Source: Gemmatimonadota bacterium
GTDB taxonomy: Bacteria; Gemmatimonadota; Gemmatimonadetes; Palauibacterales; Palauibacteraceae
NCBI GenBank assembly: GCA_965207805.1
Contig: OZ242312.1
Coordinates: 1,268,050 to 1,332,049 of the forward strand
DNA: 64,000 bases
Direction: 5' to 3'
Part shown: piece after piece, positions 1,709 through 54,195 of the stretch
Layout of the letters: each line of letters begins with the position of its first letter
Numbering within the stretch: position 1 is the first letter of the stretch
Notes under the pieces: generated by a model
Seen by the model: only the letters and a program-made list of their open reading frames with translations
What the model was told of the DNA's origin: nothing
Databases searched by the model: none
Position numbers and translations under genes: made by a program

Positions 1709-3274
<1,566 letters not shown>

Positions 3275-3289
3275 GGTGAAAGAGAATCC

Positions 3290-3712
3290 ATGAAGCTCCA
3301 ACTCGACAGTCTCAGGAAATCGCTCCAAGCTCTCTCCGAAGTCGCAACCGTGAGCGGCAACGACGAGCGCATGGGGCAACTGACCGACATCGAGCGGGTG
3401 GCGATCCGTGCGGGGGTCGTTCAGCACTTCGAGATCACCTATGAACTGTGCTGGAAGCTCATGGCCCGTTGGCTCAGCGCGAACGTCAGCCCGGGTGTTG
3501 CGGACGGCGTGACGCGGCGTCAGCTGTTCCGCCTCGCCGCCGAGCGGCGGCTGATCCAGGATGTCGGTAGGTGGATGGGCCACCATGAAGGACGAAACGC
3601 GACATCGCACATCTACGACTTCGACAAGGCCGACGCGGTCTACCGGGCAACGCTGGACTTCGTGCATGACGCGCGTGCGCTGCTGCGGGCGTTGGAAGCC
3701 CGGAATGACTGA
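3290..3712 (+). CDS. HEPN-domain ribonuclease toxin (HepT / HI0074-like)
   Basis: GVVQHFEITYELCWKLM and RNATSHIY (RX4HXY) motifs; directly upstream of an MNT domain. Confidence 0.9.
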   Translation: MKLQLDSLRKSLQALSEVATVSGNDERMGQLTDIERVAIRAGVVQHFEITYELCWKLMARWLSANVSPGVADGVTRRQLFRLAAERRLIQDVGRWMGHHEGRNATSHIYDFDKADAVYRATLDFVHDARALLRALEARND

Positions 3713-3736
3713 CCTGAGCCGCTCCGGACGCCCGGC

Positions 3737-5388
3737 GTGAGTGTCGTCCCCAACTTGGACCTGCGGCCCGATCATTGGGCCATCGTCCGCGACGCCCTGC
3801 GCCGACACGTTCCGGATCGGGAGGTGCTCGCGTTCGGGTCGCGCGCAACGTGGACCGCCAAGGATTACTCGGATCTCGATCTCGCAATCATGGGTGAGGA
3901 GCCTCTCTCGCTGCGCGCTTCGTCGGCCTTGGATGAAGCCCTTGTCGAGTCGGCCCTACCGTTCCGGGTGGACATCGTGGATTGGGCGAGCACCGACGAG
4001 AGCTTCCGCAGAGTCATCCGACGGGGTGCGGTGTCCGTTCAGGCTCCGACCGTGACTCCCGACGTGGCTCAGCGAGTTGGGATCCGCTCGACGACACCAG
4101 TTGCAAGGGGGTCATCGGGACGAGATACGAAGGAAGACAACGGCGGACTGTTCAGTCCCACGTTCCCGGAGCACTGGCGCCCCAGCCCACTCTACGCCAT
4201 GGCAACTTGGGTGAACGGGCTGGCCTTCAGGAAGATTCAGTTCTCGGATACCGGGCGGCCGATCATCAAGATCGCTGAACTCAAGGGCGGAATCAGCGGG
4301 CAAACGAAGTTCACGCAGCAGACGTTTGACGAGTCGGTGCGCGTTCGGCCCGGAGACCTCCTCTTCTCTTGGTCGGGTCAACCGGAGACCTCCATCGATG
4401 CCTTCTGGTGGAGGGGACCAGAGGGATGGCTGAACCAGCACGTCTTCCGGGTGACACCGGAACTCGGACTCGACGTCACATTCTTCTACTACCTCTTGCG
4501 CTACCTGAAGCCAAACTTCGTTCGGATCGCAAGAGACAAGCAGACAACCGGCTTGGGCCACGTCACGAAGCGCGATCTCAAGAACCTGCGAGTGGCTTCC
4601 CCCGCCCGCCCCGAGCAACGCGCCATCGCTTACGTCCTCGGCACGCTGGACGACAAGATCGAGTTGAACCGCCGGATGAACGAGACGCTGGAGGCGATGG
4701 CGCGGGCGCTGTTCAAGTCGTGGTTCGTCGATTTCGACCCGGTCCGGGCCAAGATGGAGGGCTGGGACGCGGGCTTGCCGCGAGACATCGCCGACCTTTT
4801 CCCCGACCGGCTCGTGGATTCGGAGTTGGGGGATATCCCGGACGGATGGAAAGTAATGCCACTGGGAGATCTGGTCGAGCTAGCGTACGGAAAGCCACTC
4901 CCTAAGAGGAAGCGGAGACCAGGGTGTGTTCCGGTATACGGATCTAACGGCCAGGTCGATTGGCACGATCAGCAACTCGTCGATGGACCAGGAGTGGTCG
5001 TAGGCCGCAAGGGGAATCCGGGCTTGGTCAGGTGGAGTCTAAAGGGATTCTTCCCTATCGACACGACGTTCTACGTAGTGCCGAAGGACGAGGGGCTAGG
5101 GATGTTCTTTCTATTCCACCTCTTGCGAACGCAAGATCTCCCGTCGATTGCCTCTGATTCCGCTGTCCCGGGCATGAATCGGAACCTCGCCTACATGAAC
5201 CGAGCCGTCGTGCCGTCCAAAGATACCGTTGGCGTGTTCACCAAGACCGTGAAGGCCATTTCCGCACGTCAGTACGGATTACAGCAGGAATCCCGCCCCC
5301 TCGCTGGCCTTCGAGACACCCTCCTACCCAAGCTCATGTCAGGGGCAATCCGCGTACCGGGTGCCGAGAGGCTGGCGGAATCCGTCTC

Positions 5389-5392
<4 letters not shown>
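3737..5392 (+). CDS. hsdS: Minimal nucleotidyltransferase (MntA-like) fused to type I R-M specificity subunit S
   Basis: First ~100 aa carry [16 protein letters not shown] (GSX10DXD). Then two target-recognition domains, the spacer [44 protein letters not shown] and C-terminal [12 protein letters not shown]. Confidence 0.92.
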
Positions 5393-8539
<3,147 letters not shown>

Positions 8540-47092: not shown

Positions 47093-49459
47093 ATGGCGAC
47101 GGCTGAGAAATACGTTGGCGGCGGGGTCCCGCGGAAAGAGGATCCCAAGCTTCTCACGGGGCAGGGCCAGTTCCTGGAAGGCCTCACGCTGCCCGGCATG
47201 CTTCATGCGGCGCTCGTGCGCAGCCCGCACGGTTCGGCGCGCATCAACTCGGTGGACGTTTCCGAAGCCGAAACCGCCGAGGGCGTCGTCGCCGCGTACA
47301 GCGGGGCCGACCTCGCCGATGAATGGGCGGCGGGGCTGCCCATGGCGTGGCCCGTGACCGACGACATTCGGATCCCCGACCACTGGCCGGTGGCGCAGGA
47401 TGTGGCGCGCTACGTGGGCGACGCGGTGGCGGTCGTCGTCGCGACGAGCCGCAACGCCGCTCTCGACGCAGCGGAACTGGTGGAGGTCGACTACGGGGTG
47501 CAGGAGGCGGTCGTGGACGTGGAGGCGGCGCTGGCCGACGACGCGCCACGCGTGCACGAGTCGTTCGACGACAACAAGAGCTACACCTGGGCGCTGACGA
47601 ACGGCGACGTGGACGCGGCGTTCGCGAAGGCGGACGTCGTGGTCAGCGAGCGCTACACGCAGCCGCGGCTGATCCCGAACGCGATGGAGCCGCGCGCCGT
47701 CGTCGCGCAGCCGGTCCCCTCGACGGGCGACTTCACGGTGTGGTCGACGACGCAGATCCCGCACGTGGCGAAAGTCCTCTTCGCGCTCACCCTCGGAATC
47801 CCCGAGGGCCAGATCCGGGTCATCGCGCCCTCCGACGTGGGCGGCGGCTTCGGATCGAAGCTCAACGTCTATGCCGAGGAGGCGCTCTGCATCGCCCTCG
47901 CGCGCCGTCTGGGAAGGCCGGTCAAGTGGGTCGCGGGCCGGAGCGAGGGCTACCTCGCCACGATCCACGGCCGGGACCAGGTCCAGAAGATCGAGATCGC
48001 GGCGACCTCCGACGGCGACATCCTCGGATACCGCGTCAACATCGCGGCGGCCATGGGCGCCTACCTGCAGCTCGTGGCACCGGGGGTTCCGCTCCTGGGC
48101 GCCTTCCTCTACTGCGGCTGCTACGGCGGCGAAGCGTACCACTTCGAGTGCACGGGCGTGTTCACGAACACGACCCCGACGGACGCCTACCGGGGCGCGG
48201 GCCGGCCCGAGGCCACCTACGCCATCGAGCGGGCGATCGACTCGCTCGCGCGGGAGGTCGGCGTGGACCCGGCGGAAATCCGGCGCAGAAACTTCCTCCC
48301 GGCCGGCGACATGGTGCAGAGCCCGGGCGGGCTCGCCTTCGACTCGGCCGACTACGAGCCCGCGCTCGACCGCGCGCTGGAACTGCTCGACTACGACGGG
48401 TTCCGGAGCGACCAGGCGGAGCGCCGGGCGGGAGGGGGCGGCAAGCAGATTGGCGTCGGATTCTCCTCCTACGTGGAGATCTGCGGGCTCGCGCCCTCGC
48501 AGGTGCTGGCTTCGCTGAAGTACGCAGCCGGCGGCTGGGACGCGGCGACGGTGCGCATGCTGCCGACCGGAAAGGCGGAAGTCGTGACGGGCAGCTCGCC
48601 GCACGGGCAGGGGCACGTGACCTCCTGGTCCCAGATCGCGGCGGACGCGCTCGGGATTCCGTACGAGGACGTCACGGTCCTCCACGGGGACACGCACGTG
48701 GCGCCGCACGGGATGAACACCTACGGGAGCCGCAGCCTCGCGGTGGCCGGGGTCGCCGTGCACAACGCGTGCGACCGGGTGGTCGACAAGGCGAGAGGAC
48801 TCGCGGCGCACCTGCTCGAGGTCGCGCCCGAGGACCTCGAGTACGAGGCGGGGACCTTCTCGGTGAAGGGGGTGCCGGACCGCACGAAGTCGATGCCGGA
48901 ACTCGCCTTCGCGGCGTGGACGGCCCACAGCCTGCCGGAGGATTCCGAGCCGGGGCTCGAGGCGAGCTGCGTGTACGATCCGCCGAACTTCACCTTCCCC
49001 TTCGGCACGCACGTGGCCGTCGTCGAGGTGGATACGGAGACCGGCGCCGTGGATCTCGTCCGCTACATCGCGGTGGACGACTGCGGGCCCGTGATCAACC
49101 CCGTGATCGTGGACGGCCAGGTACACGGCGGCGTGGCGCAGGGGATCGCGGCGGCGCTGTACGAGGAAGCGACGTACGCGGAGGACGGGACGCTCGAGAC
49201 GTCGTCGATGGTCAACTATCTCGTCCCGTCCGCGGCGGAGTTCCCGTCCTTCGAGACGGATCGAACGGTGACGCCGAGCACCTCGAACCCCATGGGGGTG
49301 AAGGGGATCGGCGAGGCGGGGACGATCGGGTCGGCGCCGGCGGTGATCAACGCGATCGTGGATGCGCTCTCGCACCTCGGCGTGACGGACGTCCCGATGC
49401 CGGCGAGTCCGGAACGGGTCTGGCGAGCGATTCAGGCGGCCCAGGGAGGTGAGGCATGA
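47093..49459 (+). CDS. coxL: Molybdopterin-binding large subunit, form II CoxL / xanthine dehydrogenase family
   Basis: VGGGFGSK, AYRGAGRPEA (form II motif), GQVHGG, KGIGE. Confidence 0.9.
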   Translation: MATAEKYVGGGVPRKEDPKLLTGQGQFLEGLTLPGMLHAALVRSPHGSARINSVDVSEAETAEGVVAAYSGADLADEWAAGLPMAWPVTDDIRIPDHWPVAQDVARYVGDAVAVVVATSRNAALDAAELVEVDYGVQEAVVDVEAALADDAPRVHESFDDNKSYTWALTNGDVDAAFAKADVVVSERYTQPRLIPNAMEPRAVVAQPVPSTGDFTVWSTTQIPHVAKVLFALTLGIPEGQIRVIAPSDVGGGFGSKLNVYAEEALCIALARRLGRPVKWVAGRSEGYLATIHGRDQVQKIEIAATSDGDILGYRVNIAAAMGAYLQLVAPGVPLLGAFLYCGCYGGEAYHFECTGVFTNTTPTDAYRGAGRPEATYAIERAIDSLAREVGVDPAEIRRRNFLPAGDMVQSPGGLAFDSADYEPALDRALELLDYDGFRSDQAERRAGGGGKQIGVGFSSYVEICGLAPSQVLASLKYAAGGWDAATVRMLPTGKAEVVTGSSPHGQGHVTSWSQIAADALGIPYEDVTVLHGDTHVAPHGMNTYGSRSLAVAGVAVHNACDRVVDKARGLAAHLLEVAPEDLEYEAGTFSVKGVPDRTKSMPELAFAAWTAHSLPEDSEPGLEASCVYDPPNFTFPFGTHVAVVEVDTETGAVDLVRYIAVDDCGPVINPVIVDGQVHGGVAQGIAAALYEEATYAEDGTLETSSMVNYLVPSAAEFPSFETDRTVTPSTSNPMGVKGIGEAGTIGSAPAVINAIVDALSHLGVTDVPMPASPERVWRAIQAAQGGEA

Positions 49460-50325
49460 TTCCCGCGTCTTTCGACTACGAGCGCGCGTCGTCTCTCGAT
49501 GAGGCGCTGAATCTGCTCGCCGAGGGCGGCGAGGACGCGCGGCCGCTGGCCGGCGGACATTCGCTGCTTCCGCTCATGCGGCTGCGCCTCGCGCGGCCCT
49601 CGCTGCTCGTCGATATCGGCGGGCTCGAAGAACTGCGCGGCGTGCACTCCGATGGGGACTCGGTCGTCATCGGCGCGCTGACGACGCATCACGAGGTGGC
49701 CGGCGCGTCCGAACTCACGGGCGGCAGCGGCCTTCTGGCGCAGGTGGCGGAAGGGATCGGCGATCCTCAGGTGCGGCACCGCGGTACGCTCGGCGGTTCC
49801 GTCGCGCACGCGGATCCGGCCTCCGACCTGCCGGCGGCGCTGCTCGCGCTCGATGCCGAAGTCACCCTCGCGGGGCGCGGCGGCACGCGCTCGGTGGCGG
49901 CGGCGGACTTCTTCGTCGGTCCGTTCATGTCGGCCGCGGCGGATGGGGAGATCGTGACCGGCGTCCGGGTGCCGACGCGGGAGGGCTGGGGCAGCGCCTA
50001 CCGGAAGTTCCAGCGCCGCGCGCAGGACTGGGCGATCGTCGGCGTGGCCGCCGTCGTGAACTGGACCGACTCCGGGATCGCGGGCGCCGCGATCGGGCTC
50101 ACGAACATGGGCGGCACGCCGCTGCGGGCGCCCGGGGTCGAAGCGGCCCTGGCCGGCGCGTCCGAGAAGGCGCAGATCCTCGCCGCGGCGTCGAAGGTGT
50201 CGGAACTCGAGACGCCCCCGGCGGACGAGAACGCAAGCTCCGAGTACCGCGCCCACCTCGCGCAGGTGCTGATCGCGCGCGCGGTGGCCGAGGCCGCCGG
50301 CTGCCCCGGAATGCAGGGAGGCTAG
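49456..50325 (+). CDS. coxM: FAD-binding medium subunit (CoxM-like)
   Basis: LAGGHSLLP, IGDPQVRHRGTLGGS, HADPASD. Confidence 0.92.
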   Translation: MIPASFDYERASSLDEALNLLAEGGEDARPLAGGHSLLPLMRLRLARPSLLVDIGGLEELRGVHSDGDSVVIGALTTHHEVAGASELTGGSGLLAQVAEGIGDPQVRHRGTLGGSVAHADPASDLPAALLALDAEVTLAGRGGTRSVAAADFFVGPFMSAAADGEIVTGVRVPTREGWGSAYRKFQRRAQDWAIVGVAAVVNWTDSGIAGAAIGLTNMGGTPLRAPGVEAALAGASEKAQILAAASKVSELETPPADENASSEYRAHLAQVLIARAVAEAAGCPGMQGG

Positions 50326-50539
50326 CGGCAAGTCAACGGAGTCGAGGACCTGCCGGCCTCACCGAATCGCGTGGCCGTCCAGCCCTACGCTGGCGGCCCG
50401 GGCGTCATCGCGCGCCGCAGGGCCGCCACGCATCCCCCCTCCCGAAACGCTCCTCAGGCAAGGAGAAGCGCTTCCATCCCCCCCGATTGCGGGCTCCGTG
50501 CGGGGTGGATGTGTGCATATTGTATGTATATCGCAGTGG

Positions 50540-50581
50540 TTTAGTGCTAAAACGAATGGCGAATAGACAATAACGTATTGT
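50540..50581. promoter_or_regulatory. Two short inverted repeats in an AT-rich promoter region
   Basis: TTTAG-TG-CTAAA (50540-50551) and ACAATA-ACG-TATTGT (50567-50581) upstream of the Asp-rich peptide gene. Confidence 0.4.
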
Positions 50582-50761
50582 TCATATCTGGAAATCCGAG
50601 GCCAGGTCCTCTTGTTCCTGACGGGCTCGGCTTGCGCAAAGACTGCGACGCCAAAGACGGTCCGGCGACTCGCGGCAGGAAACGCGGGCTGGCATCCTTG
50701 TCTCGCGCGACACATAATAGGCTGGTGGCTTCTTGCCCCACCTTCATCTTTGGAGGATGCC

Positions 50762-50983
50762 TTGGAAGACCGGGAAGGCCTCAAGTCGACCGATATTCGA
50801 GTCCGCGACGTTCCGCGCCGGTCGTTTCTCGAAACGGCGCTGTACCTGGTCGGGGCAGTTGGCCTGCTGGGTGCATGCGGCGAGACATCGACATCCGATA
50901 CGGGAGATCAGGACGGCGATCCGGTCGATCTGGATCCCACCGATTCCATCGACACCGATGGTGACCCCGTGGATTCCGACTGA
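50762..50983 (+). CDS. Small Tat-exported lipoprotein precursor with an Asp-rich repeat tail (candidate RiPP precursor)
   Basis: GGAGG at 50752-50756 before TTG 50762. 73 aa: PRRSFL twin-arginine motif, hydrophobic region, LGAC lipobox, then CGETSTSDTGDQDGDPVDLDPTDSIDTDGDPVDSD. Confidence 0.8.
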   Translation: MEDREGLKSTDIRVRDVPRRSFLETALYLVGAVGLLGACGETSTSDTGDQDGDPVDLDPTDSIDTDGDPVDSD

Positions 50984-51066
50984 CCGGGCACGGTGCCGTT
51001 TGCGGCCGTGACGTTCGTCTGTCGGAGTCGGCCCAGCCCGCATCTTCCCCGTGACAGCTACTCCAG

Positions 51067-52305
51067 GTGAATCCGCTGATCACGCACCGTCAGACCGACC
51101 TCCAACCCACCCCCTTCGATACCGCGAACCCGCTCGCGTGGATTCTCGGGTTCGACCCCGCGGAAATATCGTTCATCGAGAAAGTCATGGGCGTGCGGGT
51201 GCTGCATTGCCGTGACCTGCGCGAAGGCCGGTTCCGGAGTCTGTTGTCCTTCGAGAGTCTTGACGCCGTGCTCGGCACTTTCGGACTGAGAGCGCCTCAA
51301 ATTCGTGTGGTTCGTCTTGATTCGGACATCGTACAGTCCGACTATTGCCGCGATGCTCTTGTGGACCCCGCGAAGGTCGCGCGGCTGTTCGCGGATGGGG
51401 CCACCGTCATCTTCGAGGCGCTGCACGATCGACACGAACCGCTCGGCCGGCTCTGCGGCGCCTTGACAGCGCACTCCGGAGCCAGAACTCAGACCAACAT
51501 CTACCTGACACCGCCGCGGGCGCAGGGATTCAAGCCCCATTGGGACACCCACGATGTGTTCGTGCTTCAAGTAGAAGGGTCGAAACGGTGGCGCCTTTAT
51601 GACGGCGGACGGCTCGCGCCGCTGAAGTCGGAACGGTTCGACCCGGCGATTCACGAACCGGGCCCCGTCCTGGCCGAGTTCAGGCTGTCGGCCGGGGATG
51701 CGCTCTACGTTCCTCGCGGAATCATGCACGCGGCCGAGTCGCTGGACGATACGTCTCTCCACATCACGCTCGGAATGATTGCCTACACATGGGCTGAATT
51801 TGCCACGCACTGCTTCGCGGAGCTTGTCGAACGGTCGCCACCGTGGCGCGAGAATCTCCCGTACGGCTTTGCCGCGGAAGAGGCAGACGGGTTCCTGGGC
51901 ATCGGAGGTGCCCTTTCGGAGCGGCTCTCGACGGTCGGCAGTGAACTGGACGCGGCGACCGTCCTTTCCGCAAAACTGGACGATCTCCGGAACGGGATCG
52001 CGCGGCACGGCGCGGACTACCTGGCGCAGGCCGCGGGGGCGGAGCTCCTGACGCCGGATGACACCGTTCAAGCCCGTCCGCTTGTACATGGCAGAATCGA
52101 AATACGTGACGAGAGGGTCGTTTTCGTCGCCGCCGGCCGGGAGCTGGATTTCCCGAAGAGGGCCGAACGGACCGTGCGCCAAGCAATATCGGGGATGCCG
52201 CTGCACGTTACAGGCTTCGTCGACGATCTCGATTGGCCCGGTCGAAAAGCCGTGCTGGAGACGCTGGTCCGTGAGGGTTTCTGTTCCGTTATGCGCACCG
52301 CGTAA
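51067..52305 (+). CDS. JmjC/cupin 2-oxoglutarate-Fe(II) protein hydroxylase (ROXA/YcfD/NO66-like)
   Basis: NIYLTP...GFKPHWDTHDVFVLQVEGSKRW (HxD and 2OG-binding K), LYVPRGIMH (distal His), SLHITLG, C-terminal winged-helix-like end. Confidence 0.92.
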   Translation: MNPLITHRQTDLQPTPFDTANPLAWILGFDPAEISFIEKVMGVRVLHCRDLREGRFRSLLSFESLDAVLGTFGLRAPQIRVVRLDSDIVQSDYCRDALVDPAKVARLFADGATVIFEALHDRHEPLGRLCGALTAHSGARTQTNIYLTPPRAQGFKPHWDTHDVFVLQVEGSKRWRLYDGGRLAPLKSERFDPAIHEPGPVLAEFRLSAGDALYVPRGIMHAAESLDDTSLHITLGMIAYTWAEFATHCFAELVERSPPWRENLPYGFAAEEADGFLGIGGALSERLSTVGSELDAATVLSAKLDDLRNGIARHGADYLAQAAGAELLTPDDTVQARPLVHGRIEIRDERVVFVAAGRELDFPKRAERTVRQAISGMPLHVTGFVDDLDWPGRKAVLETLVREGFCSVMRTA

Positions 52306-52306
52306 G

Positions 52307-54028
52307 TCAGCGCCCCCCGGCAGGGCTCGCGGGGCGGGGCGCCACGGCGGCGCCTTCCCAGTCGGGGTCGGCGGCCCCGATCCAGGTGCGGGTGGCGGCG
52401 TCGTACTGCAGGCCGTGGATGCGCCCGAACGCGCCCTGCCGCGGCGTGGGCGTGATCTCGAATCCCATCTCCCGGAATTCGTCCATCGAGGTCCCGGACC
52501 AGCCATCCTCGGGGCCCGCTTCCACGGAGAAGCCCGCGAGCCCGTCCGGGCCCATGTCGGGATGCACGCGGGGGGCCGCGAGGGCGGCGGGTAGCGCCAA
52601 GCCGTCATCGATGACCCGCGTCACGGCCTGGACGACCGCCGAGATGATCCGGATGCCGCCGGCGGCGCCCAGGACGAGGAACGGTTCGCCGTCATCGAGG
52701 ACCATGAAGGGCGTGATGCCGGACCGCGCGCGCTCGCCCGGCTCGCTGATCCCCAGGTAACCGCCCAGCGTCACGGCGTAGAGGAAGCCGAGGCCGGGGG
52801 TCGCGACCTTCGCGCCCATGCCGGGGCCGATCGTCTGCGTGAGCGCGATGGCCATGCCGTCTCCGTCCGCGGCGGAGAGATGCGTCGTGTGGCTATCGTC
52901 CGGCGGAAGGTCCAGGCCCTCGACCGCGCCGGCGAACCATGAACTTCCGGTTCCGCTCGCCGCCCAGGGTTCCGCATCGGCCTCCATCGCCGCCTCCACG
53001 GGCACTCTCACCTGCTCGGAGAGCTCTCGGGCGAACGCCTTCGACGTCACGCGCACGGCGGAGGAGTCCGAACTCGGCCGGCGGTATTCCGTCATCGCGA
53101 TGGCGAGGGACTGGGCGATGACCGAAGCCCACGCCTCGTCGCTCATGCTGCCGGGATCGAAGACCTCCGCGATTTGGAGAGCGAGGATCGCGACCGCGCC
53201 GGAGGCCGGGATGTCGGAACCCACGATCTCGAACCCGCGGTAGGATCCGCGCACGATCCGCGAGTCCTCCGCTTCGTAGGCCGCCAGCGCCTCGCGGGTC
53301 AGGAAGCCGCCGTTCGCCGCCATGTCGTCGGCGATGCGGCCGGCGATCTCCCCGCGGTAGAAGGCGTCGCCGCCGCCGAGGGAAATCGTCCTCAGCGTCG
53401 CGGCCATGTCGGACTGCACGAGCCGGTCGCCTGGGTCGTAGGGCGATCCGTCCGCCCTGAGGTAGTAGCGCCGGGCGCCTTCGGACTCCGCCACCTGGTC
53501 GCGCGATCCCGCCTGGCGGCGCGCCTCTCCCGGCAGCAGCCGGAAGCCATGCGCGGCATAGTCGATCGCCGGCGCCATGATCGTGGTCAGCGGGAGGGAT
53601 CCGTACTCCTCGTGCAGGCGCATGAGGCCCGCGACCGACCCGGGCACGCCGACGGTCGGATAGCCGTAGGCGGCGCGCGGCGCCGTGGCCGGGTCGTATC
53701 CCAAGGGAACCGACGTCGTCCCGTCGATGCCCGCGACCCCGCCGTCCGGCGTCCGGATCAGGATCTGGTTGCGCCCCCCGATGCTGTTCATGCTCGGCTC
53801 GACCACGGAGATCGCGAACGCGGCGGCGACGGCCGCATCCGCGGCGTTCCCCCCGAGCTCGAGCATCAGGGCGCCCGCGGCCGCGGCCAGCGGCTGCGCC
53901 GCCACGACGACCCCGTCCGCCGAGCGCGCGACCTGGGGTGCACTCTGCGCGCCCAGACCAAGCGGAACCGCCGCGAACGCGAGTACCGCGAGCATGGTCG
54001 TGCCGTACATCCGGATGCCTGGCTTCAT
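52307..54028 (-). CDS. ggt: Gamma-glutamyltransferase family protein, exported
   Basis: GGNAADAAVAAAF, VGVPG, HTTHLSAAD (catalytic Thr), GAAGGIRI, signal peptide. Confidence 0.92.
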   Translation of the reverse strand: MKPGIRMYGTTMLAVLAFAAVPLGLGAQSAPQVARSADGVVVAAQPLAAAAGALMLELGGNAADAAVAAAFAISVVEPSMNSIGGRNQILIRTPDGGVAGIDGTTSVPLGYDPATAPRAAYGYPTVGVPGSVAGLMRLHEEYGSLPLTTIMAPAIDYAAHGFRLLPGEARRQAGSRDQVAESEGARRYYLRADGSPYDPGDRLVQSDMAATLRTISLGGGDAFYRGEIAGRIADDMAANGGFLTREALAAYEAEDSRIVRGSYRGFEIVGSDIPASGAVAILALQIAEVFDPGSMSDEAWASVIAQSLAIAMTEYRRPSSDSSAVRVTSKAFARELSEQVRVPVEAAMEADAEPWAASGTGSSWFAGAVEGLDLPPDDSHTTHLSAADGDGMAIALTQTIGPGMGAKVATPGLGFLYAVTLGGYLGISEPGERARSGITPFMVLDDGEPFLVLGAAGGIRIISAVVQAVTRVIDDGLALPAALAAPRVHPDMGPDGLAGFSVEAGPEDGWSGTSMDEFREMGFEITPTPRQGAFGRIHGLQYDAATRTWIGAADPDWEGAAVAPRPASPAGGR

Positions 54029-54195
54029 GGATCCTCCGTCGGTTTTGCGGTCCCCGGCAGCCTGTAGCAAAGCCCTGCCGTTTGGGCGGCGCTGCATCTC
54101 GCCCGCGGGAAACTTGCGCCCGGTACGGGCGGTGACTAGGGTCCGGATCGTCTTGACAAGACTGTTAAACGATTTGGACAACGCGAGGATCACGA

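Follow-up and report, generated by a model that had tools for sequence, protein, structure and literature searches.

A JmjC oxygenase gene paired with a twin-arginine, lipobox-bearing Asp-rich peptide gene: a candidate RiPP-type maturation module of Gemmatimonadota and Acidobacteriota

A 64,000-nucleotide stretch of the genome of a Gemmatimonadota bacterium (assembly GCA_965207805.1, contig OZ242312.1, positions 1,268,050 to 1,332,049; hereafter the window) was analyzed, and a two-gene cassette at 50300-52305 of this window is the subject of the present work. Gene 1 encodes a small peptide with a twin-arginine motif, a lipobox and an Asp-rich tail, and gene 2 encodes an oxygenase of the JmjC type. 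We propose that the cassette is probably a two-gene maturation module of the RiPP type (a peptide synthesized by the ribosome and modified after translation), in which the peptide would be modified by the JmjC enzyme under the guidance of its leader, exported by the twin-arginine translocation (Tat) system and anchored by lipid. Within this proposal, the peptide is likely to be the substrate of the JmjC enzyme, and this is the part in which we place most trust. That the modification is a hydroxylation of Asp is a suggestion to which we give slightly less than an even chance, and a role of the product in metal binding is put forward somewhat more tentatively again.

Conserved pairing of the peptide and oxygenase genes

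The occurrence of small Asp-rich open reading frames (ORFs) with a Tat motif and a lipobox beside close and distant homologues of the JmjC gene, a check named in an initial annotation of this DNA, was examined with an enzyme profile made from 20 homologues. This profile gave 458 confirmed stretches in contigs from one genome per species, and the best 80 of the 458 were scanned for ORFs with the pattern R-R-x-hydrophobic, a lipobox 8-40 residues further on, and a mature part of 9-120 amino acids (aa) that was at least 15% Asp. By this approach, a matching small ORF was detected no more than 800 bp from the enzyme gene in 67 of the 80 loci, while the remaining 458,581 bp of flanking DNA yielded two ORFs of this pattern, both of the same family and located 1-3 kb from the enzyme gene. 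When the 11 loci without a match were read by eye, four were found to carry whole peptides, one a peptide cut by the contig end and one a frameshifted copy; two had no upstream DNA and three had no peptide. Thus, with the two far matches included, a paired peptide was found in 75 of 80 genome loci, with two loci not assessable and three without a peptide. A partly overlapping metagenome set of 37 loci included nine with less than 200 bp of upstream DNA, and the other 28 gave 23 positives. The check therefore came out in favor of the pairing in both sets, and the recurrence of the pair across phyla indicates, at the level of sequence, that it is more than chance. The arrangement by which RiPP loci are recognized was found here: a modifying enzyme is encoded beside a short gene for a precursor whose leader is conserved and whose core varies.

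One clade of Gemmatimonas sp. (L023/L100/L102/L153), nested among peptide-bearing enzymes, showed no detectable Asp-rich ORF with Tat motif and lipobox in the 1.3 kb flanking the enzyme gene on each side; this clade may have lost or relocated the partner gene, or its enzyme may act on another substrate.

Architecture of the precursor peptide

Gene 1 (50762-50983 on the plus strand, stop included) encodes a 73-aa precursor, as delineated from the sequence and from a profile of 30 homologues. The surrounding ORF frame (50612-50983) contains the in-frame TTG at 50762 that starts the 73-aa product, and this codon is preceded by a Shine-Dalgarno-like GGAGGA (50752-50757, plus strand); GGAG-type sites also precede the starts of homologous peptides. 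The start is uncertain by four codons, because the nearest orthologue (L093, 76% identical) begins with a GTG that lines up with another in-frame TTG, at 50750. The precursor consists of an n-region (aa 1-18), the motif P-R-R-S-F-L (aa 18-23), a hydrophobic stretch, the lipobox L36-G37-A38-C39 (50867-50878, plus strand) and the mature part C39-D73. The signal or leader part (aa 1-38; 50762-50875, plus strand), delimited by alignment, has its predicted cleavage site at the lipobox, by which C39 would become the lipidated N-terminus of the core or mature peptide (aa 39-73; 50876-50980, plus strand). This core has 35 residues, 12 of which are Asp, contains two DGDPVD units and ends in D-S-D. The gene boundaries, PRRSFL and LGAC motifs, tail length, Asp count and duplicated DGDPVD unit reported in the initial annotation were all confirmed by reading the sequence.

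The residues M1, R19, R20, F22 and C39 were invariant in 30/30 aligned homologues, and one relative (L025) was found to have R-K in place of the twin arginines. The window motif P-R-R-S-F-L agrees with the twin-arginine consensus (S/T-R-R-x-F-L-K type before a hydrophobic stretch), from which the export route is predicted, and a lipobox with the invariant Cys at the junction of leader and core is present in the window and in all 30 homologues. The genome encodes TatC, LspA and Lgt. The n-region is itself conserved: the window leader has D11-I12-x-x-x-x-V17-x-R19-R20-x-F22, which corresponds to the cross-phylum motif h-x-x-x-[DE]-[IV]-x-x-x-x-[IV]-x-R-R-x-F. The distance from the start to the twin arginines is 31 residues in most Acidobacteriota, about 20-22 in most loci of the Gemmatimonadota type and 18 (or 22) in the window; judged by sequence, this n-region is long for a Tat signal.

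The cores fall into several types, which include TDSDQA repeats of varying number, SDSDGSQ repeats and the GDPxDxD units of the window, often with a Cys pair. Among 85 unique cores (median length 36 aa, range 15-74; median net charge -10), Asp accounts for 26.5% of residues, Ser for 16.7% and Gly for 12.3%. D-x-D was detected in every one of the 85 and D-[ST]-D in 78; 46 start with Cys-Pro and 28 contain Asp-Pro, as do both repeats of the window. At four loci (L017, L018, L095 and L096) two different cores with like leaders lie beside one enzyme gene. To the extent that alignments can tell, this follows the usual logic of RiPP precursors, in which a single enzyme serves cores that are free to differ behind a leader that is conserved. 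In a further locus (L013), precursor genes at 3312-3953 and 5225-5581 lie one on either side of the enzyme gene.

Conservation of the small ORF, another point that the initial annotation had marked for checking, was evident. Compared to L093, the peptide gene has a ratio of nonsynonymous to synonymous substitution (dN/dS) of 0.30 over 71 codons and the enzyme gene a ratio of 0.14, values by which gene 1 is estimated to be under purifying selection, and a large protein collection contained 173 clusters of the peptide family at E <= 1e-5. Among the matches listed (120 clusters), the proteins are 68-138 aa long, carry no Pfam domain and have 'hypothetical protein' as their only name. Searches of Pfam and NCBIfam with the peptide returned no family, and a search of the ESM Atlas (best score 0.89) returned clusters without names and was uninformative. 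The Tat lipoproteins encoded in the same genome resemble the gene 1 signal weakly (E 0.016 or worse).

A ROX-type JmjC oxygenase

Gene 2 (51067-52305, plus strand) encodes a 412-aa ROX-type JmjC Fe(II)/2-oxoglutarate (2OG) oxygenase, as assigned by Pfam, sequence matches in the PDB, AlphaFold2 and Foldseek. The product has no N-terminal signal peptide and matches Pfam JmjC_2 (PF08007) with 98.1 bits (cut-off 22; E 3.6e-28). The catalytic residues, located by homologue alignment at 51538-51729 on the plus strand (H158, 51538-51540; D160, 51544-51546; K173, 51583-51585; H221, 51727-51729), were invariant in 20/20 homologues; the triad aligns with that of MINA53, and K173 is presumably the 2OG ligand, by the numbering of NO66. 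The closest solved relatives by sequence were MINA53 and NO66 (E about 1e-20), followed by YxbC and YcfD.

An AlphaFold2 model of the enzyme, made with a 20-sequence alignment (mean pLDDT 87.5, pTM 0.81), comprises a double-stranded beta-helix to about residue 240, a helical part at 242-327, and four strands plus two helices at 333-409. From the full-length fold match to NO66, the helical middle domain (aa 242-327; 51790-52047, plus strand) is the putative counterpart of the ROX dimerisation domain, and the C-terminal beta-beta-beta-beta-alpha-alpha domain (aa 333-409; 52063-52293, plus strand) is winged-helix-like and, based on the complex model described below, the predicted docking site of the leader. 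Foldseek aligned the whole model with NO66 (4e4h_C) at E 6.6e-26 with a TM score of 0.71 over 441 columns; MINA53, YcfD and YxbC ranked next, FIH ranked far lower, and identity to the solved ROX members in these structural alignments was about 19-20%. The three-domain ROX architecture (JmjC, helical dimerisation and C-terminal winged helix) was thus recovered in the model, by which the gene 2 product is a structurally complete ROX-type oxygenase. The description of gene 2 in the initial annotation, as a ROXA/NO66-type JmjC protein with an intact HxD...H triad, was borne out by the PF08007 match, the invariant residues and the predicted fold.

NCBIfam gave no match to the gene 2 product or to its acidobacterial homologues, and no other gene of the PF08007 type was found in the genome. 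The enzyme family comprises 683 cluster representatives at E <= 1e-30.

Predicted docking of the leader on the enzyme

One complex prediction, in which the peptide was the partner chain, was made from the alignments of the two proteins and was accompanied by three controls. The complex scored 0.63 (0.63, 0.64 and 0.60 in the individual runs, which share at least 45% of contacts) compared to 0.01 for the best control, a mark that 58 of 80 solved complexes and 2 of 110 mismatched pairs attain, although this calibration is rough, custom alignments having been used. The confident interface comprises peptide residues 6-30, which run from D-I-R-V-R-D-V through R-R-S-F-L into the hydrophobic stretch, and on the enzyme side the C-terminal strand 357-363 and helix 388-403 together with helices 244-255 and 299-309. 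Peptide residues 11-17, among others, touch strand 357-363 and helix 388-403, the expected errors starting at 1.1 Å, and the residue pairs of lowest error (enzyme/peptide 361/13, 359/15 and 357/16) run in register. In the model, such pairs have the look of an added beta-strand, the mode by which RiPP recognition elements (RREs) hold leaders. The complex model thus supports binding of the N-terminal region of the precursor to the C-terminal domain of the enzyme, and the RR-x-F motif may be conserved in part because the enzyme grips it.

Phyletic distribution and decay of the module

Among 61 genomes of the order to which the window belongs, full-length enzyme genes were found in four, and strong matches to the peptide profile (E <= 1e-13) were found in exactly the same four genomes, always adjoining the enzyme gene, and in none of the other 57. 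Weak matches in the 61 genomes (E 2.5e-5 to 9.5e-5) fell inside ORFs of 303-634 aa and are, by sequence, generic Tat signals. Similarly, in five unrelated carrier genomes the strong matches (E 5.6e-13 or better) were the enzyme-adjacent copies, and the rest were at E 0.003 or weaker. The possibility that the enzyme is a housekeeping ribosomal hydroxylase, which had been raised as a test of the initial annotation, was not supported by its distribution, which is patchy: of 301 Gemmatimonadota genomes sampled, 4 had the enzyme, as did 15 of 201 in a single order of Acidobacteriota. Judged by gene context and by this distribution, the substrate of the gene 2 enzyme is probably not a ribosomal protein.

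The gene order coxM-peptide-JmjC-ggt is intact in the orthologous locus L093 (76% identity). By contrast, two congeners, L009 (genome G009) and L010 (genome G025), retain cassette fragments alone, directly after coxM. These comparisons suggest that the module is an old but dispensable accessory in the lineage of the window. In L009, positions 1493-1687 hold a piece of the 5' end of the peptide gene fused to a mid-piece of the JmjC gene. Another congener carries, besides a full module, a second partial JmjC copy (G028:C3:78888-79715; loci L011 and L012) of 47-49% identity, with two pieces in one 363-aa frame, and no peptide was detected beside this second copy.

Association with PepSY_TM proteins

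Neighboring gene families were compared by cross-lineage BLAST and Pfam, and PepSY_TM proteins were counted with our own hidden Markov model. A PepSY_TM-like ORF was adjacent in 53 of 81 loci by this model, as well as in 3 of 37 metagenome loci, and Pfam confirmed PepSY_TM in L016, L024 and L090 at E values of 8e-54 to 8e-50. In Acidobacteriota the PepSY_TM gene lies behind the peptide gene in the same orientation, and the enzyme gene is divergent; in L016, L024 and L106 it lies divergent upstream, and in L025, L099 and L107 it lies downstream. Since these three arrangements occur in three separate JmjC clades, we argue that the PepSY_TM protein is functionally tied to the module and is not a relic of inherited gene order. 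Three His residues were invariant in 14 module-linked PepSY_TM proteins. In the parts of PMC13038864 available to us, FoxB and further members of the PepSY_TM family are described as haem-dependent periplasmic ferrisiderophore reductases and CrpH as a proposed copper reductase. Judged by gene neighborhood, a link of the module to metals thus appears to exist in relatives of the window through the adjacent PepSY_TM gene.

Proposed maturation pathway

From the features, pairing and co-occurrence observed, and from the fold and leader binding seen in the models, we infer a modification, its residue, its order relative to export and a metal-related function as follows. The long conserved n-region and RR-x-F motif would double as enzyme leader and as Tat/lipoprotein signal. 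The winged-helix-like C-terminal domain would take up the leader as an extra beta-strand, and the acidic core would as a consequence be kept close to an Fe(II)/2OG site, either in the same subunit or in its partner. At least one residue of the core would then be oxidised, most likely by C3 hydroxylation of Asp in the D-[ST]-D and D-x-D units. While bound, the enzyme would hide the twin arginines, such that export would wait for release. The released precursor would be exported by Tat, and Lgt and LspA would lipidate Cys39 and cut off the leader. The end product would be a polyanionic lipopeptide of 35 residues, attached to the outer side of a membrane and most likely able to bind metal cations. 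The PepSY_TM protein would belong to the module in the majority of acidobacterial relatives and in some others.

The ROX and FIH relatives of the enzyme hydroxylate side-chain C3. The same chemistry is attributed to ROX and FIH relatives in a passage of PMC11575548. Asp was chosen as the target because the Asp residues of D-x-D are common to all cores and because the nearest enzyme families are C3 hydroxylases. Cation binding is suggested since a polyanionic, perhaps hydroxy-Asp-rich tethered peptide adjoins a metal reductase in relatives. The argument first advanced for modification before export, that Tat would be superfluous for such a small peptide if it were left unmodified, is weak in this form, as DAG-RiPPs are modified in the cytoplasm and use Sec-type signals. 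A more far-reaching version, in which the module represents an undescribed and widespread class of ribosomal lipopeptide whose ROX winged helix binds the leader and gates the Tat signal, and whose beta-hydroxy-Asp arrays form a tethered metallophore that passes Fe(III) or another cation to PepSY_TM reductases, would unite these elements, and we regard it as speculative and rather unlikely to hold in full.

Several observations weigh against the proposal. The locus counts overstate independence, as 54 rows of a 100-sequence enzyme tree fall in one tight acidobacterial clade, and independent support amounts to about 20 well-separated lineages and not 75. At least five enzyme lineages (L023/L100/L102, L036, L061, L115/L126 and L125), together with a distant copy in genome G445, were found to have no such peptide nearby. 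The cassette is dispensable, since two congeners retain only remnants of it that decayed in place, and few genomes of the phylum carry it. The window cassette itself has no adjacent PepSY_TM, TonB receptor or transporter gene, and the sole PepSY_TM gene of the genome is 2.5 Mb away; likewise, the nearby TonB receptor or sulfotransferase that the initial annotation had suggested seeking was not seen beside it. With regard to the complex model, the peptide partner has a pLDDT of 45-48, which leaves its own fold uncertain, and the model places the leader only. The target residue is a guess, because the core has no confident position. We know of no enzyme of the ROX family that acts on Asp.

Alternative explanations

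The rival that retains most force, which we nevertheless hold to be improbable, is that the enzyme binds the signal region but catalyzes other chemistry (on Pro, Ser/Thr or an Arg of the leader) or serves mainly as a gatekeeper that times Tat export. As gatekeeper it would be comparable to the chaperones of Tat-exported redox enzymes, and in modifying a leader Arg it would be comparable to YcfD acting on L16. Consistent with this explanation, the confident interface in the model is formed by the RR motif and n-region and not by the core, the nearest characterised relatives hydroxylate His or Arg and not Asp (according to PDB entry titles), and Pro follows Asp in 28 of the 85 cores, both window repeats included. 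However, the invariance of the catalytic triad and K173 implies that catalysis is kept; the Asp-rich D-x-D units are the sole features common to all 85 cores; and the leader is expected to be cut off and degraded, so a modification there would have at most a transient role.

Lower in probability is an explanation in which the peptide is an unmodified acidic lipoprotein, either a cation-binding tether or a partner of PepSY_TM, and the JmjC enzyme is merely co-regulated and has another substrate such as a ribosomal protein. The acidobacterial peptide genes, which point the same way as PepSY_TM and away from the JmjC gene, would fit this explanation, as would the JmjC lineages without a peptide and the lack in the genome of any other PF08007-type gene to serve the ribosome. 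By contrast, the window and most loci of the Gemmatimonadota type keep the peptide and JmjC genes together with no PepSY_TM gene present, strong peptide matches occur only with a full JmjC gene (4/4 compared to 0/57), and the predicted complex passes its controls. A ribosomal substrate in particular is disfavored by the presence of the enzyme in so few of the 301 sampled genomes of the phylum, unlike a gene for ribosome maintenance.

It is very improbable that the JmjC enzyme hitchhikes on the peptide, binding a Tat-signal partner to cross the membrane and be anchored there. The Tat system exports folded complexes, the enzyme has no signal of its own, and a complex is predicted. The predicted contact, however, is with the signal region, which must be free for the translocase and is later cut off, and not with the mature part; the mature parts are disordered polyanions of 15-74 aa; and an Fe(II)/2OG enzyme would presumably find no 2-oxoglutarate outside the cytoplasm. 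Finally, the idea that gene 1 is a chance ORF, which the abundance of long spurious ORFs in high-GC DNA and the lack of a matching family model might suggest, is contradicted by cross-phylum conservation with invariant RR, F and C, by the Shine-Dalgarno sites, by the dN/dS of 0.30 and by the 173 clusters, and can in practice be set aside.

Relation to known systems

Our preferred reading, a leader-guided and JmjC-modified lipopeptide, shares elements with several known systems. Similar to the ROX enzymes (YcfD/RoxA, NO66 and MINA53; PF08007), the gene 2 product has the same Pfam family, the same full-length three-domain fold and the same HxD...H triad. Unlike these enzymes, its family is a patchy accessory that is paired with a small peptide predicted to be exported, and its C-terminal domain is predicted to bind a leader. 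Among the PDB matches, the bacterial ROX proteins with a named function are arginine hydroxylases of L16 (Escherichia coli YcfD and a Rhodothermus marinus homologue), and Bacillus subtilis YxbC is labelled as a putative asparaginyl hydroxylase only.

In overall logic the module is closest to the DAG-RiPPs, RiPP-lipoprotein hybrids whose first description dates from 2026 and is confined to MNIO enzymes, according to the parts of PMC13056109 (PNAS 2026) consulted. There, as proposed here, cytoplasmic modification by a signal-less iron enzyme is followed by use of a lipobox signal, and the Cys becomes the lipidated N-terminus. The enzyme here is a JmjC protein and there an MNIO (DUF692), so the module follows the same logic and is not a member of the described families. 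The modified motif of DAG-RiPPs, as given in that source, is a C-terminal Cys motif compared to the Asp-rich array of the present cores. Their signals, and those of signal-peptide RiPPs, are described as predicted for signal peptidase I or II (the lipoprotein ones by SignalP 6.0), and none of the words 'Tat', 'twin', 'JmjC' or 'cupin' appears in the examined text of PMC13056109.

JmjC enzymes are known as RiPP hydroxylases: as described in excerpts of the respective papers, BipG hydroxylates ornithine in biphenomycins (PMC12707348), and CzlI hydroxylates Phe in curacozole and depends on core-flanking sequence (PMC11575548). By these descriptions, the present enzyme would be similar in that a JmjC-fold Fe(II)/2OG enzyme is proposed to hydroxylate a residue of a ribosomal precursor. 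BipG and CzlI belong to multi-enzyme clusters for cytoplasmic antibiotics with classical leaders, whereas the module here has two genes, a signal-peptide leader and a product proposed to be lipid-anchored. Beta-hydroxylation of Asp in RiPPs by Fe(II)/2OG enzymes (CinX/DurX, YhhC, CanE and SmaO) is reported as established in the portion of PMC12186529 at hand. SmaO is described there as acting on Asp in Gly-rich 'GD/DG' surroundings, and the cores here have surroundings that are alike by this description. In the same portion of that paper the words 'JmjC' and 'cupin' do not occur, and for the present enzyme Asp hydroxylation is what we infer.

A survey from 2025 (PMC12710340), in the part available, reports RRE-like folds fused to PF08007 JmjC domains of fish and algae, and places bacterial homologues with roughly 30% identity in RiPP-like contexts, with no Tat/lipobox precursor described in that part. 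The predicted contact between a leader strand and the C-terminal domain of gene 2 resembles RRE-leader binding. The reductases FoxB, FsrB, FpvG, HiuB and CrpH, as presented in the consulted part of PMC13038864, are of the same Pfam family as the module-linked PepSY_TM proteins, and conserved His residues are found in both; they partner with TonB-dependent transporters and with diffusible siderophores or copper complexes, whereas the partner here would be a tethered ribosomal peptide. Ribosomal metallophores such as methanobactins and bufferins bind a metal through modified residues; what points toward such a role here is indirect, namely the PepSY_TM gene next to the module in relatives and the polyanionic core. 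In full-text literature, with few subscription journals covered and supplements excluded, no module of a JmjC enzyme and a Tat/lipobox Asp-rich peptide and no natural Tat-dependent RiPP was found described, although supplement tables of PMC13056109, PMC12710340 and PMC13038864 might list such loci; the sole Tat-related match was, from the text seen, an engineered display system.

If the more far-reaching version holds, no natural RiPP would have been shown to depend on Tat before this one, and the enzyme would have the first non-ribosomal, peptide-directed role of a bacterial ROX protein. If the proposal is correct, a peptide-directed ROX clade would widen the picture of these enzymes in bacteria, and their conserved winged helix at the C-terminus would gain a definite function. 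The RiPP-lipoprotein exit route would also be shared by an enzyme family unrelated to the MNIOs, with a Tat and not a Sec-type signal, which would make the strategy a general one. PepSY_TM proteins are abundant and mostly without known partners, as stated in the consulted part of PMC13038864, and a linked tethered acidic peptide would be a candidate partner. The hosts (Vicinamibacterales, other Acidobacteriota, Gemmatimonadota and sponge symbionts, among soil and marine bacteria) are common and poorly studied.

Neighboring genes and upstream DNA

A convergent gene for an Xaa-Pro aminopeptidase (AMP_N plus Peptidase_M24) follows the JmjC gene in about 60 acidobacterial loci, examples of which are L090 (5682-7145, minus strand) and L034 (5133-7739, minus strand). 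As a lead only, cleavage of Cys-Pro by such an enzyme may free the peptide from its lipid anchor. Fumarase genes, also convergent, are found in acidobacterial loci. Both aminopeptidase P and fumarase were considered as parts of the module and judged to be likely plain synteny of close kin.

Beside the JmjC gene of five loci from three phyla is a protein of about 350 aa that is weakly CbiX/chelatase-like (E 0.0015-0.085): L020 (1308-2372), L021, L025 (6222-7103), L048 (5398-7200) and L075 (5439-6476). In several loci of the Gemmatimonadota type, the module is adjoined by genes for an extracytoplasmic function (ECF) sigma factor, a weakly Metal_resist-like protein, an outer-membrane beta-barrel and a lipoprotein of 412 aa that is acidic and belongs to no known family; this set is found in L018 at 75-644, 904-1539, 1563-2288 and 2266-3504. 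DUF2914 is another recurrent neighbor in loci of this type and, like the ECF sigma factor and the beta-barrel, is of no clear bearing.

In the window, the cassette is flanked by a gene for a CoxM-type flavoprotein (49456-50325) and by a convergent gene for gamma-glutamyltranspeptidase (52307-54193). The GC content is 0.56-0.65 over 50300-52250 compared to 0.69-0.76 on either side. The initial annotation had described a two-gene, lower-GC cassette between coxM and ggt with an AT-rich upstream region, and this description, like each of its other sequence observations, was found again as given. A recent horizontal insertion was considered as the cause of the low GC and is weakened by the retention of the coxM-peptide-JmjC-ggt order in the orthologue of 76% identity.

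An Rfam search of the upstream region returned no family match, and a terminator scan found none. The 83-nucleotide gap between gene 1 and gene 2 folds no better as RNA than shuffled sequences (z 0.91), and no attenuator is claimed. The upstream intergenic region (50440-50761, plus strand; GC 0.56) contains an AT-rich stretch at about 50500-50620, with a GC of about 0.4 compared to 0.72 for the genome, and this stretch occurs once in the genome. A scan for promoters in the upstream region found one sigma-70-like site (50689-50718) compared to 0.5 expected. About 280 bp of the upstream intergenic DNA is missing from the orthologue L093. Inside the AT-rich stretch lies a perfect 6-3-6 palindrome (ACAATA-ACG-TATTGT, 50567-50581), and the stretch could be an operator or the remnant of an insertion.

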